From the NCBI GenBank assembly GCA_049115575.1, contig JAGDZU010000004.1, positions 83,094 through 147,093 on the forward strand: 64,000 nt of DNA. The letters run 5' to 3'. The translations under genes were made by a program, and so were the position numbers. The notes below the pieces were generated by a model. The model was not told where the DNA came from. It was given only the letters and a program-made list of their open reading frames with translations, and searched no databases. The DNA comes from Bacteroidia bacterium. GTDB taxonomy: Bacteria > Bacteroidota > Bacteroidia > NS11-12g > UBA9320. Shown piece by piece: positions 13,057 to 18,202 of this stretch (position 1 is the stretch's first letter; every line of letters begins with the position of its first letter).

Positions 13057-14922
13057 TTGAGAGCTACATTAGTTGTCATAGCATTTTTTATCTCCTTTAT
13101 TGTAGGAGCTCAGATACTAGATACTACAGATGTTCATACCTATAAAACCTTACAAAATTACCAAGTTAGTGAACAGGGTTTAATCAATTTGGAAGAAGAC
13201 TCCATAAGTATTGACACCTCACTAAAAACTCTTGGGCGAAGTTATGGTGCCATGCACGAGAATTTTGCTTTTTTAGATTTGGGTTTTGAAGGCAGTCCTC
13301 TATTAAAATTGACCAATCTACCTGTTAGAAATCTCAGCTTGGAACTAGGTATGAATGGAATGGACTATTACTTCTATGATTTTGAATTAAATAGATATCA
13401 CTCCGATCGTCCTTTCACCCGATTGAACTACTCTCAGGGTGCCAATGAACTTATATTTATTGACGTTACTCATGGCCAGGAAATTTCAAGAAGGCTCACT
13501 TTCGGTTTAGATTACAGACGCCTGAAGAACCAGAATTTTTACTACTCCAATATTAGCAATGCAGACAGAGTTAGGTTTTCAAATCTGTTCAATACCAAAT
13601 TTTATACTGGCTACTACAATAAAGATAGAAGCTATGAGATGCTGTTTGGATTTCTATGGAACAAAAACAAGAACATAGAATCTGGAGGACTGGAAGACCC
13701 AGCTCTATTTGAATTATTATCTGGTAGAGAAAAAACCAATAATAATCCTAGCTATTTGGGTGATGCCAATAGCCAAATAGCAGAACACGGTTTTAAATTA
13801 ACTCAGTTTTTTAGATTAAAATCGTCTCCATTAGATACGAACAACAAACACGATTTAAGACGTTTTAAAAGTCAGGTGATTTGGAATACAGAATTGAATT
13901 ATCAGCGTTCCGAATACACAGACAACTTACCAGATTCTGCCTTTTATGGACTCAAATTGGCAGAGGTACACGATAGCATATTACATAGGAAGTTTTCGAG
14001 CGGATTGAGCTATATGATTAAGCAAAACAATGCTATGTACATAGCCGGATTGCAGTATAGTAATGACCATATATATCAGGATAGTTCATTTGTTAGATAC
14101 AACTCCCTCTATACCAGAATTGAAACAAAACAGCACTTGTTCAATTGGGATTTAAAGGCCAAACTAGATTTTGGACTAGTAGGATACAATCAATCTGATT
14201 ATAAATTAGATGTGAAGTTTAAACGGAGATTCAATAAATCCCTTTTAGCCTTGGGATGGACAGAATCATCTATAAGACAGAATTATATACAGTCCCAATT
14301 CAGCTCTTCCTATATCAGCTGGCAAGATTCATCTTGGCAATCTGAGAACAATAGAAGAATTGTTGTTAAATACAAAAGAAAAATGGCTAAGTCTGCCGTG
14401 TATATTAAGGCTTCGGTACAACAAGTGAAGGGGTTGATGTACTTTAATGACAGTAGCATATTGCAATCCAATGAGCTAAGTACACTTAGTAATTTAACCT
14501 TGGCCTATAAACTAAAGATGAAGCATTGGGGTGGAAATGCCCAATTCACTTATCAGACTAGTTCTAATCAGCAGGTTTTACCAAGACCAGAGTTGTTTGG
14601 ACAAGCTGAACTCTACCTGCAGCTGAAATTATTCAAGAAACTATTGAACACACAATTAGGAGTAAGTTCAAGAGCCATGTCTGAATTTAATGCACCTATT
14701 TACGATCCACGGATTAGACAGTGGAGAAACAGCAGTGATATTTTTGAATACTATTCACCTATCCAGCTATTTATGAGAGCCAAGATTAAGAGCTTCTATT
14801 TTGGATTCAATGTGTTCCATATCCAACAAGGTTTTATGGGTGAGAGCTATTATAGTTCCCCTAACTACCCTATGATGCCGAGAGCTTTCCGTCTTAATAT
14901 TCAATGGGATTTGGCAAACTGA
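13057..14922 (+). CDS. Putative outer-membrane porin (Bacteroidota Porin_10-like)
   Basis: Signal peptide, LG.EGSP, RPFTRLNYSQG and C-terminal YPMMPRAFRLNIQW. Confidence 0.75.
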   Translation: MRATLVVIAFFISFIVGAQILDTTDVHTYKTLQNYQVSEQGLINLEEDSISIDTSLKTLGRSYGAMHENFAFLDLGFEGSPLLKLTNLPVRNLSLELGMNGMDYYFYDFELNRYHSDRPFTRLNYSQGANELIFIDVTHGQEISRRLTFGLDYRRLKNQNFYYSNISNADRVRFSNLFNTKFYTGYYNKDRSYEMLFGFLWNKNKNIESGGLEDPALFELLSGREKTNNNPSYLGDANSQIAEHGFKLTQFFRLKSSPLDTNNKHDLRRFKSQVIWNTELNYQRSEYTDNLPDSAFYGLKLAEVHDSILHRKFSSGLSYMIKQNNAMYIAGLQYSNDHIYQDSSFVRYNSLYTRIETKQHLFNWDLKAKLDFGLVGYNQSDYKLDVKFKRRFNKSLLALGWTESSIRQNYIQSQFSSSYISWQDSSWQSENNRRIVVKYKRKMAKSAVYIKASVQQVKGLMYFNDSSILQSNELSTLSNLTLAYKLKMKHWGGNAQFTYQTSSNQQVLPRPELFGQAELYLQLKLFKKLLNTQLGVSSRAMSEFNAPIYDPRIRQWRNSSDIFEYYSPIQLFMRAKIKSFYFGFNVFHIQQGFMGESYYSSPNYPMMPRAFRLNIQWDLAN

Positions 14923-14932
14923 TGATTTAAAG

Positions 14933-16354
14933 ATGGTCTTTAACTCCAGTATATTTCTAGTCTTTTTCTTACTCTTTTTTCCTATCTATTGGGCTATAAA
15001 TAAGAGCTTTACAATTCCAATTCGCAATCTTTTCATTATAGTCTGCAGCTACGTATTTTACGGTTGGTGGGACTGGCGTTTTCTATCTCTCATCTTTATT
15101 AGTTCAATAACAGATTACCTCATAGGTTTAGAGCTGGCCAAAACCAACAAACCATCCAGAAGAAAAATCTTGATAGTTGTGAGTTTGGTGGTCAATCTTG
15201 GAATTCTTGCATTCTTTAAATACTATAATTTCTTTATTGATTCAGCTGTGGAGGTCTTTAATATATTGGGCTTTAGCTGGTCTACAACTAGCTTGAACAT
15301 TATACTTCCTGTTGGTATTTCCTTCTACACATTTCAGACCCTCAGCTATACATTGGATATTTATAAAAGCAGATTAAAACCTACCAAGGATTTGCTAGCT
15401 TTTTTTGCCTTTGTTTCCTTTTTTCCTCAATTGGTGGCCGGTCCAATTGAAAGAGCGAGAAATCTTCTCCCTCAATTCTCTATAGCCAAAAAGTTAGAGT
15501 ATCAGATGGTTGTTAGTGGCTTTCGCCTAGCGCTTTGGGGCTTTTTTAAAAAACTGGTAATAGCAGATAATTTTGGGCTGTTGGCAGATAATCTTTTTTC
15601 TCAGGACCACTATAATGTTTGGATTACTCTTTTTGCCGCTCTTTGTTTTGCCATTCAGATCTACGCAGATTTCTCAGCTTACTCAGACATTGCTATTGGT
15701 ATTGCGAAAACTTTAGGATTCAAACTAAGCACTAATTTTAGAGCACCCTACTTTTCAAAATCTTATACTGAATTCTGGCAACGTTGGCATATCTCATTAT
15801 CTACATGGTTTCGAGATTATGTATATATACCTCTAGGTGGAAACAGAACAACAAAAAGCAGGATGCGCATGAACATCTTTATTACATTCTTGCTTTCGGG
15901 TCTGTGGCACGGTGCCAATTTCACTTTTATACTCTGGGGCGCACTCCATGGGCTATTACTTATAATAGAAAAAAGATTTAACGCTTTCCTTAGAGGACCA
16001 CTTTACGCTATTGCCGTATTTATAGGAGTTGTACTTCTTTGGTTGGTTTTTAGAGCTGAAGACTTCAACCAATTAAAGTCTATGACCTATTCTCTGACCC
16101 AATTTGCTTCCTATAGTGATTCGGGGATCCCTGCGATTATTCACAATTTCTCAAATGTGAAGTTTGTTGTGCTGAGCCTAGTGATGGTTCCATTCTTTCT
16201 TGTTGAATACAGAATTAAAGACAGCCATATTGAGGACCATATGGCAAAATACTCAAAGTGGATTAGGTGGTCTATTTACTATTTGTTGATAGTACTCATT
16301 TTAATGCTGACTAACCTTGATGTTAAACCTTCATTCATCTATTTTCAGTTCTGA
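14933..16354 (+). CDS. MBOAT family O-acyltransferase (AlgI/PatA-like)
   Basis: LPVGISFYTFQTLSY, FFPQLVAGPIER, DFSAYSDIAIG, FWQRWHISLSTWFRDYVYIPLGGNR, GLWHGA and terminal FIYFQF. Confidence 0.95.
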   Translation: MVFNSSIFLVFFLLFFPIYWAINKSFTIPIRNLFIIVCSYVFYGWWDWRFLSLIFISSITDYLIGLELAKTNKPSRRKILIVVSLVVNLGILAFFKYYNFFIDSAVEVFNILGFSWSTTSLNIILPVGISFYTFQTLSYTLDIYKSRLKPTKDLLAFFAFVSFFPQLVAGPIERARNLLPQFSIAKKLEYQMVVSGFRLALWGFFKKLVIADNFGLLADNLFSQDHYNVWITLFAALCFAIQIYADFSAYSDIAIGIAKTLGFKLSTNFRAPYFSKSYTEFWQRWHISLSTWFRDYVYIPLGGNRTTKSRMRMNIFITFLLSGLWHGANFTFILWGALHGLLLIIEKRFNAFLRGPLYAIAVFIGVVLLWLVFRAEDFNQLKSMTYSLTQFASYSDSGIPAIIHNFSNVKFVVLSLVMVPFFLVEYRIKDSHIEDHMAKYSKWIRWSIYYLLIVLILMLTNLDVKPSFIYFQF

Positions 16355-17244
16355 TGAAAAAGCTAATTATACATAGCGTTTTGTTTCTGCTTCCATTAGT
16401 GCTTTTACTTGCTTTAGTGCCTGTTGATAGGAGAATTCTATTTAAGGAGTTAAAGGATGATTGTTTAAATAAAGGAATATGGATGCATGATCGCATTCAC
16501 ATAAATACCACACCTATAGATATAGCTTTTCTGGGCACATCACATACTATCAATGCAATTGATGAAAAGGTAATAGAGGCCAATCTGTCTGACTCAACCT
16601 TAGATGTAACCAACTTTGGTTATTGCAGAATCGGCCGAAATCTGAATTTGGCCTTATTAGAAGAAATTGGAAAGAAGAAGACTCCTCAAGTTGTAGTGCT
16701 TGAAATTAGGGAGAATGAGAATTTGAAAGGCCATCCAGTCGCGCCTTATATAGTATCCAGTAGTTCTTTCTTAAAATGGAACTCATGGTTTCACTCAGCG
16801 AGTCTCTCTGATTTGTGGAAGCATTTATCGTATAAAACACAACTTACCCAAGACAAGTATTATAATAGAATTGACAGTCTTCATTTTTTTCCTTGGGACC
16901 ATTATCACAAATCTGCCATCGATACAGCTACAGACTTAACGCATTCCAATAAGCCAATAAAAAAAGGTATTGAACTTAAGTATACTTATCCGCACTCATA
17001 CCTTAAACAAATTGCAAAATGGTGCTCTAATAGAAACGTTGAGCTGGTATTTATCTATCTACCGAATTATTCATACAGAAATGCGGCACCTTTACATATT
17101 GATTTCTATGAAGAATATGGTAAAGTTTGGCTACCACCTGCAGAACTACTAAACAATAACAATCTTTGGTACGATATAGAACACCTAAACACCGCTGGAG
17201 CTAAAAAGTACAGTGAATGGGTTGCCAGTAAATTAGAAGAGTAA
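16354..17244 (+). CDS. SGNH/GDSL-like acyltransferase partner of the MBOAT
   Basis: N-terminal anchor, FLGTSH (GxS nucleophile) and DIEHLN (DxxH). Translationally coupled to the MBOAT gene (TGATG). Confidence 0.7.
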   Translation: MKKLIIHSVLFLLPLVLLLALVPVDRRILFKELKDDCLNKGIWMHDRIHINTTPIDIAFLGTSHTINAIDEKVIEANLSDSTLDVTNFGYCRIGRNLNLALLEEIGKKKTPQVVVLEIRENENLKGHPVAPYIVSSSSFLKWNSWFHSASLSDLWKHLSYKTQLTQDKYYNRIDSLHFFPWDHYHKSAIDTATDLTHSNKPIKKGIELKYTYPHSYLKQIAKWCSNRNVELVFIYLPNYSYRNAAPLHIDFYEEYGKVWLPPAELLNNNNLWYDIEHLNTAGAKKYSEWVASKLEE

Positions 17245-17245
17245 C

Positions 17246-17440
17246 TTATTCTATGATTTCTTTTACACGACCTACTTCTCCGGTCTCTAAAAGAACTTTG
17301 ATTCCATGAGGATGGAACTTTGATTTGGTGAGTATCCTTTCAACAAACCCACTGGTTAGATCTCCTGTAGATTGGTCTTCTTTCATTACAACCATTACTT
17401 CGCTACCTATTTTAACATCATTTCGATTTCTACCGTCCAT
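17246..17440 (-). CDS. YwbE/DUF2196 family small protein
   Basis: K.DQ.TG.LT.G.V..ILTKS.FHPHGIKV.L..G.VGRV family signature. Confidence 0.9.
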   Translation of the reverse strand: MDGRNRNDVKIGSEVMVVMKEDQSTGDLTSGFVERILTKSKFHPHGIKVLLETGEVGRVKEIIE

Positions 17441-17490
17441 TGCTTTTTGGATTTGCTCTTAAAGAGAGTTAGATTTGTAAAATTTGCTAT

Positions 17491-17524
17491 AAAGAAAAAG
17501 TCCCGGCCATATAGGCCAGGACTT
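17491..17524 (-). terminator. Rho-independent terminator
   Basis: Minus strand AAGTCCTGGCC-TATAT-GGCCGGGACTT followed by TTTCTTT. The 11-bp stem has one G-U pair that forms only on the minus strand. Confidence 0.8.
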
Positions 17525-17595
17525 AATTTCAAAGATAAAATACTAAACTACTACTTATGATGAAAATTATTAACCATGTGTACCTTGCGGTACAT
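17491..17595 (-). ncRNA. Candidate sigma54-dependent small RNA (about 100 nt)
   Basis: Bounded by a -24/-12 promoter and an intrinsic terminator. It begins with the hairpin UGUACC-GCAA-GGUACA and has an AU-rich unstructured core. Confidence 0.7.
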
Positions 17596-17605
17596 CTTAT
17601 AGTAA

Positions 17606-17620
17606 GCTAATACTGTGCCA
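17606..17620 (-). promoter_or_regulatory. Sigma54 (RpoN) -24/-12 promoter
   Basis: Minus strand TGGCACAGTATTAGC, i.e. TGGCAC with exact GG-N10-GC spacing. The predicted +1 (about 17594-17595) falls at the start of the hairpin. Confidence 0.75.
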
Positions 17621-17637
17621 ATAGCTTTCTTGTTGAC

Positions 17638-17650
17638 AGTCAGTCTTTTA
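17638..17650. promoter_or_regulatory. IHF-like DNA-bending site upstream of the sigma54 promoter
   Basis: AGTCAGTCTTTTA matches WATCARNNNNTTR with one mismatch, about 45-57 nt upstream of the predicted +1. Confidence 0.4.
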
Positions 17651-17761
17651 AGTTTTTCAACCATCAATTATTCTCTCTTTTTTAGACACTTTTTTCTCAT
17701 TATTGGACTTATGGCAATTAGTCGGTTTGTGTGCTCTTTGAGTTTTATATAGATTGCATGC

Positions 17762-18202
17762 ATGTCAATATCTTATAAAGTAATAATCGTATTAGCCATG
17801 TTCATTTGCTCATCATGCTCTCGACAAGAGCCTGATATTGAGAAAGATACAGCCAATATTGAAGCTCTTCTTGCTCAGCAGCTAGTGGATTGGAATAATG
17901 GAGATATTGAAGCTTTCATGCAAACATATTGGGATTCCGAGACCTTGAGATTTAGTAGCAGAGGTGGTACAGCTTATGGCTGGAATAATGTCTTAGACAT
18001 GTACAAACGCTCATTCCCAGATAGAGAAAGTATGGGGCAGCTGCATTTTGACATAGACACCATATTTACTAATAGATATCCAATGGTTCAGGTAAATGGC
18101 GCCTTCCATCTATATAGGTCGGACACCTTAGAAGGTCCATTCTCTTTATTCTTTGAAAAAATTGATAGTGAATGGAAAATTACAGAAGATCATACATGGT
18201 AA
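17762..18202 (+). CDS. NTF2/SnoaL-like lipoprotein (DUF4440/YybH-type)
   Basis: Lipobox CSSC, WNNGDIEAFM..YW, MGQLHF and WKITEDH. Confidence 0.8.
   Translation: MSISYKVIIVLAMFICSSCSRQEPDIEKDTANIEALLAQQLVDWNNGDIEAFMQTYWDSETLRFSSRGGTAYGWNNVLDMYKRSFPDRESMGQLHFDIDTIFTNRYPMVQVNGAFHLYRSDTLEGPFSLFFEKIDSEWKITEDHTW

Follow-up and report, generated by a model that had tools for sequence, protein, structure and literature searches.

The window, i.e. the whole stretch of 64,000 nucleotides that was analysed, contains a gap of 322 bp between a DUF2196 gene on the minus strand and a DUF4440-like gene on the plus strand, and this gap holds a compact minus-strand unit (Table 1). The predicted RNA gene is ~105 nt long and runs from ~17595 to ~17490 on the minus strand. 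Its transcription start is placed at ~17595 +/- 2 because of the spacing to the -12 element and the position at which conservation begins. On the minus strand, 17578..17525 has the sequence quoted in an earlier sequence-only reading of this DNA, which had described the core of a putative sRNA as the reverse complement of a generic Bacteroidota translation start; the opposite strand is ...GATAAAATACTAAACTACTACTT-ATG-ATG-AAA-ATT..., and its two ATGs lie at 17557 and 17560. The same reading took the core to be single-stranded, and most of it is indeed unpaired in the predicted fold once the transcript is trimmed to its likely ends. This fold of 17596..17488 consists of a 5' hairpin, a core with weak local pairs only, and an 11-bp terminator stem (z = -4.4; none of 200 shuffles folds equally well).

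Table 1 Features of the RNA locus and its surroundings (positions are those of the window)
Feature	Position	Strand	Remark
Candidate regulator-binding palindrome, TGACTGTCA core	17633..17643	-	~22 nt upstream of the -24 box
Sigma-54-type promoter, TGGCAC (-24) and GC (-12)	17604..17620	-	canonical spacing
5' hairpin UGUACC-GCAA-GGUACA	17579..17594	-	predicted fold
Core, 55 nt	17579..17525	-	mostly unpaired in prediction
Core module A, AUGGUUAAUAAUUUUCAUCAU	17556..17579	-	includes both CAU (17562..17560, 17559..17557), the 'anti-AUG' of the sequence-only reading
Module A elements CAUCAU / UUAAUAAU		-	
Core module B	17535..17556	-	includes the family-invariant AAGUAGUAGUUUAGUAU (17556..17540); has GUAGUAG
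Spacer CUUUGAAAUU, core to terminator	17525..17534	-	70-90% conserved
Intrinsic terminator, 11-bp stem, 5-nt loop, then UUUUUCUUU	17488..17524	-	terminator scan
17-codon ORF (MMKIINHVYLAVHLIVS)	17557..17610	+	judged non-gene
DUF2196 gene	17246..17440	-	downstream neighbour outside the RNA; Pfam PF09962, E 7e-28
DUF4440/SnoaL-like gene, 146 aa	17762..18202	+	divergent; syntenic in most relatives

A terminator scan found the terminator on the minus strand only, and fold prediction gave no alternative anti-terminator structure beside this strong terminator. The stem covaries, with compensatory changes in eight of the 11 pairs; this count was reached by 1/500 shuffles and the covariation score by 0/500. 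Two RNA-library contigs of low depth cover the locus, at 17462-17636 and 17491-17610, with flanks that lack cover. These contigs carry no strand or end information, and one of them extends upstream of the predicted start. Promoter and intrinsic terminator, as predicted from the sequence, suggest that the RNA is a transcription unit of its own, independent of the neighbouring genes.

Sigma-54 promoters follow the consensus TGGCAC-N5-TTGCW, with GG at -24, GC at -12 and a fixed spacing. The promoter in the window reads TGGCAC-AGTAT-TAGCT. Of 44 variants of the RNA, 35 have TGG[C/T]A[C/T] at a constant distance from the core. T12 recurs in 32 of these 35, G14 in 29 of them and C15 in 27, and no constraint is seen at positions 7-10 and 13. 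The -24/-12 pattern with its fixed spacing fits a putative sigma-54 promoter. One genus contributes six variants in which the -24/-12 box gives way to the TTTG/TAnnTTTG promoter that is standard in Bacteroidota. The genome of the window encodes one rpoN (PF04552, one match, 178.7 bits) and, as enhancer-binding activators, at least two full-length proteins (PF00158, 245 and 230 bits) along with one gene split over two frames. The split activator domain (G000, C2:687716-688133) occupies adjacent open frames of 223 and 255 aa, and the gene may be frameshifted or broken. Upstream of the promoter, the palindrome reads TGACTGTCA here and CTGATAATCAG at the same position in most relatives (judged by eye, not counted). 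It was seen in the forms TGATAATCA and TGACTGTCA, at the same position in L002-L016, L032, L047, L051, L072 and L075, and both half-sites switch together between the forms, as expected of a site for a dimeric DNA-binding protein. With ~22 nt between it and the -24 box, it sits closer to the promoter than the sites of sigma-54 activators usually do. The promoter pattern suggests that the RNA may depend on sigma-54.

No Rfam 15 family matched at its gathering threshold anywhere in the window; on 17200-17900 the best sub-threshold scores were 29.2 against 58.7 for L20_leader and 22.7 against 115 for GibS. By BLAST, 26 of the 36 genomes compared from the same family (f1) contain the element and none of the 24 from the sister family (f2) does; its conserved part is exactly 17580..17488. 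Across the order, a covariance model identified it in 42/65 f1 and 1/85 f2 genomes, mostly as a single copy. A 17-mer scan over the genomes of 185,579 species returned 66 loci, of which 40 score at least 42 bits with the covariance model, many of these 40 having gone into building that model. The labelled loci carry Bacteroidota-type names, as judged by eye rather than by cross-tabulation, and the rest come from unclassified bacteria. In Flavobacterium the scan gave no sRNA-like locus, the single match (L041) failing the covariance model. Some genomes (G008, G013 and G112) have two copies of the RNA. Those of G008 lie in tandem, 329 nt apart (L003:1557-1687 and L003:1886-2016), each with its own -24/-12 box, and the second copy in G013 is divergent (60 bits).

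Comparison of the 44 variants shows that the A-U-C of CAUC and AAGUAGUAGU.UA are invariant, as is AAGUAGUAGUUUAGUAU, and that at least 90% retain the C of CAU. About 50 nt are invariant across 11 genera, far beyond the usual length of a seed. The sequence-only reading had proposed to check whether homologues conserve UUUUCAU and GUUUAG more than the flanking sequence. Both do stand above their flanks, but the best-conserved part is GUAGUAGU and not UUUUCAU, and the U-run is missing in 6/44 variants; UUUUCAU is kept except in the six sigA-type variants. The g4 variants lack most of module A. The 5' hairpin has another top in relatives (CUUUC-GAGA-GAAAG) on the same UGU/ACA base. With a core that is invariant or nearly so in 44 variants and mostly unpaired in the modelled fold, the RNA would present a conserved and accessible seed. 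The proposed minus-strand sRNA is supported by its 44 variants, the covarying terminator and the promoter motif, and we assign it, on comparative grounds, to a strongly conserved and previously undescribed sRNA family of an uncultured Bacteroidia family.

The usual gene order around the RNA is ilvE, the DUF4440-like gene, the RNA, a gene for a protein with tandem OmpA domains, and a Porin_10 gene. In most relatives (loci compared, L004-L027) it is a gene for a ~360-aa protein with two OmpA domains that lies between the RNA and the Porin_10 gene. In the window (region compared, 13057-17440), the place of the OmpA-like gene is taken by an MBOAT gene (14933-16354), a gene for 296 aa (16354-17244) and the DUF2196 gene (17246-17440). 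The OmpA-like genes downstream have TAnnTTTG boxes of their own after the terminator in many relatives (by eye), and no complementarity to the RNA was seen in the leader of the adjacent OmpA-like gene.

The start-like appearance of the core was evaluated against the 2269 genes called in the window's own genome (2.64 Mb, 38% G+C). The start context of this genome is of the SD-less, A-rich Bacteroidota type in which AUG-AAA is common, with A occupying +4 in 64% and +5 in 58% of the called starts. Of 756 unambiguous starts, one half served to train a position weight matrix and the other 378 were held out; the matrix assigned 3.6 and 4.0 bits to the pair of ATGs at 17557 and 17560. These values correspond to the 73rd and 78th percentile of the 378 held-out starts, to the 98.9th and 99.2nd percentile of 40,000 ATGs, and to the 98.3rd and 98.8th percentile of 6,648 intergenic ATGs (top 1.2-1.7%). 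The resemblance to a start site is real, i.e. beyond what chance gives, and not extreme.

A generic anti-AUG function, as put forward in the sequence-only reading, predicts that complementary targets are enriched at start codons. No enrichment over shuffles or over inside-gene windows was found at 2018 starts (windows of -40..+24; controls from inside genes and from the antisense strand). In comparison with 300 dinucleotide shuffles of the core, exact complementary words at these starts numbered 267 vs 261 +/- 40 for k=8, 79 vs 80.6 +/- 19.4 for k=9, and 35 vs 24.1 +/- 8.5 for k=10, the last count being as high in 32/300 shuffles. The mean duplex energy of the full core was -13.6 at starts vs -13.7 inside genes, and the same was obtained for shuffles (11 only). 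The anti-AUG segment (core 11-26) came to -10 kcal/mol or below at 14/2018 starts vs 25/2018 inside-gene windows, a start count that 13/25 shuffles do as well, and it never reaches -12 kcal/mol at any of the 2018 starts. Four sub-segments of the core were tested with 25 mononucleotide shuffles each, and none was start-specific. The invariant segment reached -12 or below in 20 windows vs 7.9 +/- 4.7 in shuffles; it is not start-specific, as 20 inside-gene and 17 antisense windows also reach this value. It should be noted that these global start tests ignore accessibility and are of modest power, and that duplex energies leave out intramolecular structure. The three matches within the window that had been cited (7-12 nt) do exist and, as was said of them, are too short to carry weight alone.

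When the 2018 genes were ranked by duplex energy with the full core, the first place, at -27.7 kcal/mol, fell to a gene outside the window (contig C1, 778829-783664), by a narrow margin over the next genes at -27.5 and -27.3. Its product has 1611 aa, PKD domains and a type-B sorting domain of the type IX secretion system (T9SS), and orthologues of ~1,600-1,650 aa occur in both f1 and f2. The word ACUACUAC, taken in mRNA sense from the invariant part of the RNA, has 7 of its 69 genomic copies just upstream of starts, and T9SS cargo makes up three of the six largest genes that carry it. For occurrence upstream of starts, ACTACTAC ranks 1/560 among words of the same composition and only 167/28,345 overall.

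The two modules of the core were examined separately on the orthologues. For module B (core 18-45 against leader positions -60..+3), 15 of 30 loci allowed the start to be placed. Eleven of the 12 placed f1 leaders gave -14.5 to -20.1 kcal/mol, within the top 0-1.7% of 2269 genes, and at most 3/200 shuffled leaders match those energies. In these 11 leaders an (ACU)n motif is the predicted pairing partner of the invariant AAGUAGUAGUUUAGUAU. The exception is a locus of the same-genus genome G001 (-6.8) on a 1.9-kb contig, which may be a paralogue. Conversely, all three placed f2 leaders reached only -6.0 to -7.6, and the 7-mer is present in 10/12 placed f1 leaders vs 0/3 placed f2 leaders. The (ACU)n motif is predicted to be unpaired (P = 0.58-0.98), and the position of the target site varies from -6 to -56 relative to the AUG. 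In the g8 leaders L143, L197 and L198, (ACU)n sits in a loop of 23-24 nt, closed by a stem of 6-7 bp whose end is only a few bases short of the AUG; the loop resembles that of a kissing-type antisense target.

Module A (core 1-24 against -6..+27 of the mRNA) gave -15.8 to -18.5 kcal/mol in 6/11 orthologues and -11.6 in one more, compared with a 1st percentile of -12.9 for the background and a 5th percentile of -12.1 for T9SS cargo genes. In those six, the predicted duplex of UUAAUAAUUUUCAUCAU spans the AUG together with the first ~6 codons. Weak module A pairing is seen for this genome's own target gene, with -9.2 kcal/mol (14th percentile), as well as for G004, G007 and G015. The full-core duplex is two-part, with the AUG inside it in 11/11, and the best-case mRNA site, AUGAGAAAAUUAUUAAC, matches the plus-strand image of the RNA over 17 nt with a single one-base gap. 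Four further RNA-bearing genomes place both modules in the top 2.4% or better; for module A these four, all of one genus, gave -18.4 to -19.4 in three cases and -11.9 in the fourth. In this further test starts could not be placed for 4/11 loci; both g4 orthologues are among the loci left unplaced over the two tests. Neither site is present in the orthologues of the sister family or in that of the RNA-less genome G026, and second paralogues fail to reach both modules, one of them reaching the top 1.8% on module B alone. Complementarity to the start region is conserved across species, and the controls are negative.

Co-occurrence of the RNA and the target points in the same direction, and is suggestive only. 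An orthologue (E <= 1e-20) is present in 20/24 RNA-bearing f1 genomes vs 2/9 RNA-less ones (Fisher p = 0.002), where the cut-off was chosen after seeing the data, the genomes are related so that counts are not independent, and one of the two orthologue-positive RNA-less genomes is only 88% complete. Four RNA-bearing genomes (G003, G006, G014 and G016) have no orthologue at this cut-off, and other targets must therefore exist.

Several further candidates were tried and rejected. A 537-aa gene that matches in this genome served as negative control: 19 of 23 loci were placed, and 17 of the 18 other placed leaders were ordinary, the remaining one, from f2, lying in the top 3.4%. Orthologues of an 872-aa hybrid kinase are confined to the genus. 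For a 1048-aa T9SS type-A protein two complementary sites are kept only within the genus. Its leader (G000, C1:427828-430974, L098/L113; G001, L114) carries a 12-nt complement of core 3-14 and AACUACUAC, in an order opposite to that in the RNA, and this arrangement is kept in the same-genus genome and hardly beyond. T9SS cargo was also considered as a class-wide regulon and dismissed: the 7-mer was found in 3/122 vs 15/2147 genes (p = 0.07), and duplex energies were alike. A T9SS C-terminal sorting domain occurs in 122/2269 genes (5.4%), with 101 of type A and 23 of type B over the Pfam cut-offs, a secretome that is very large given a genome of 2.6 Mb. An unbiased search for words upstream of starts returned the TAnnTTTG promoter box as its top motifs. 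The top words at -35..-1 of the G000 starts are all TAnnTTTG, the Bacteroidota -7 box, and this enrichment implies that many mRNA leaders are shorter than ~30 nt.

The start-like look of the core is explained by its complementarity to the 5' end of one conserved gene, and the RNA most likely mirrors one real start site, as far as the comparison indicates, rather than recognising start sites in general. What stands of the pairing across the AUG proposed in the sequence-only reading is the predicted pairing of the CAUCAU segment, on one gene; the generic, many-target mode does not. A global regulator, whose anti-AUG seed (UUUUCAU) would pair with the A-rich leaders and AUG-AAA of many mRNAs and dampen translation broadly, is accordingly judged decidedly unlikely. 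It would fit the good start-site score of the plus-strand complement and the frequency of AUG-AAA among the starts of the genome, and five genes match ATGAAAATTA in register. Yet complementarity at 2018 starts is no higher than in 300 dinucleotide shuffles, full-core energies are equal at starts and inside genes, the anti-AUG segment stays short of -12 kcal/mol on all 2018 starts, and 6/44 variants have lost the U-run. A protein-binding sponge or scaffold, in which the invariant (GUA)n/UAG-rich stretch is a platform for an RNA-binding protein and the mRNA complementarity is secondary, seems unlikely to us. The ~50 invariant nt over 11 genera would suit such a platform, and sRNAs of Bacteroides are reportedly bound by RbpB (PMC11697453). 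Left unexplained, however, are the two complementary sites kept in one orthologue group while its leader otherwise diverges, and the absence of both sites where the RNA is absent.

The genomic surroundings bear on two other readings. The RNA is invariant whereas the gene downstream of it changes between genera, which makes a cis-acting leader or attenuator of the downstream same-strand gene (DUF2196 here, OmpA-like in relatives) very improbable. A co-oriented gene does follow 58 nt past the terminator here and 80-190 nt past the core in relatives, but many OmpA-like genes have their own TAnnTTTG box (by eye), and the terminator is strong, with no anti-terminator fold found. That the start-like sequence is the real start of a small plus-strand protein (MMKIINH...) is barely credible. 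ATG-ATG-AAA has a good context and opens a frame of 17 codons; among the 44 variants, however, this frame ranges from 4 to 56 aa, shares its first 7 residues only and has lost the ATG in 9/44. Moreover, invariance is as strong over the 30 nt that precede the ATG as over the codons themselves, and the promoter and terminator signals are on the opposite strand. A mini-ORF on the sense strand (MVNNFHHK) was discarded too, since frameshifts and loss of the ATG are tolerated among variants.

The anatomy of the gene, its conservation and the conserved two-site complementarity are results of computation on the genomes compared. The best explanation, and one that we consider probable, is a dedicated trans-acting antisense sRNA with two sites, likely a translational repressor of the mRNA of the ~1,600-aa protein. 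Transcription of the RNA, its sigma-54 dependence, repression rather than activation, and an inducing signal are what we infer from this arrangement. On activation of a sigma-54 activator, the RNA would be transcribed from the minus strand. Its invariant GUAGUAGUUUAGUA would contact the open (ACU)n motif in the target leader, and the adjoining UUAAUAAUUUUCAUCAU would then cover the AUG and the first ~6 codons. Ribosome loading and initiation would be blocked, possibly followed by decay of the mRNA. The RNA could instead activate its target, e.g. by opening the leader stem.

A farther-reaching proposal concerns the origin of the family, and we hold it tentatively, as possible rather than probable: a sigma-54-controlled family may have been born by inverted copying of its own target's 5' end, and it may now be a dedicated clamp that holds the mRNA for a giant T9SS type-B surface protein at two sites, the leader loop and the start codon. 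If this is true, the RNA would be, as far as the literature searched shows, the first sRNA paired with a T9SS cargo gene and the first sigma-54-dependent sRNA proposed in Bacteroidota, and some sigma-54 signal would be tied to remodelling of the cell surface.

Bacteroidota have neither Hfq nor ProQ and largely ignore Shine-Dalgarno sequences, and to our knowledge few sRNA-target pairs have been described in this phylum. Comparison alone yields here a concrete, testable pair, with a two-module seed and a target family, and the sister family and the RNA-less genomes provide natural negative controls. The data would also suggest a route by which such RNAs originate, namely an antisense copy of the 5' end of the target, and a link from sigma-54 control to the type IX secretion cargo proteins that shape the surface of these bacteria.

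The closest parallel is GibS of Bacteroides thetaiotaomicron (Rfam RF04182). Its report describes a trans-encoded RNA that represses two SD-less mRNAs by means of a conserved, unstructured seed of 30-50 nt spanning their start codons (PMC7366714). The two RNAs are alike in having a long, conserved and unstructured seed that spans the start codon of a specific SD-less mRNA, in our case by prediction. The same report places the GibS seed at the very 5' end and its targets among metabolic genes, whereas the present RNA has its seed after a 5' hairpin, a predicted T9SS cargo gene as target, a sigma-54-like promoter, and another lineage as host. The window's RNA does not belong to the GibS family, as the RF04182 covariance model gave 22.7 bits vs a gathering threshold of 115 (E = 0.91). 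Of the suggested SD-independent sRNA that spans a start codon, the predicted pairing across the AUG is retained; the idea as such is not new, as GibS is already published for Bacteroidetes (PMC7366714). What appears to be new from the sequence comparison is the sRNA family together with an unusually clear comparative target prediction, the GibS-like mode being already known.

Rfp18 of Flavobacterium psychrophilum is conserved beyond one species, with predicted and partly shown control of the mRNAs of secreted metalloproteases and an adhesin; it pairs via a stem-loop, and its deletion lowers the target mRNA (PMC9723704). Compared by this description, both are Bacteroidetes sRNAs tied to secreted or surface-protein mRNAs, and they differ in that Rfp18 pairs through a stem-loop and the present RNA, by prediction, through its open core. 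In the open-access full text searched, no report was found of a sigma-54-dependent sRNA in Bacteroidetes, or of a T9SS cargo gene targeted by an sRNA through such pairing. Among Proteobacteria, Qrr1-4, GlmY/GlmZ and NrsZ are sigma-54-dependent sRNAs that act with Hfq. They share with the present RNA a -24/-12 promoter, a conserved unpaired pairing region and sometimes tandem copies (as in G008 here); they belong to other phyla and have no sequence relation to it, and the sigma-54 dependence proposed here is read from the promoter. MicA, RybB and MicF are envelope sRNAs that repress outer-membrane proteins by blocking translation initiation on abundant surface-protein mRNAs. They differ in sigma factor, phylum and chaperone from the present RNA, which apparently has one main target, to which it would pair at two sites.
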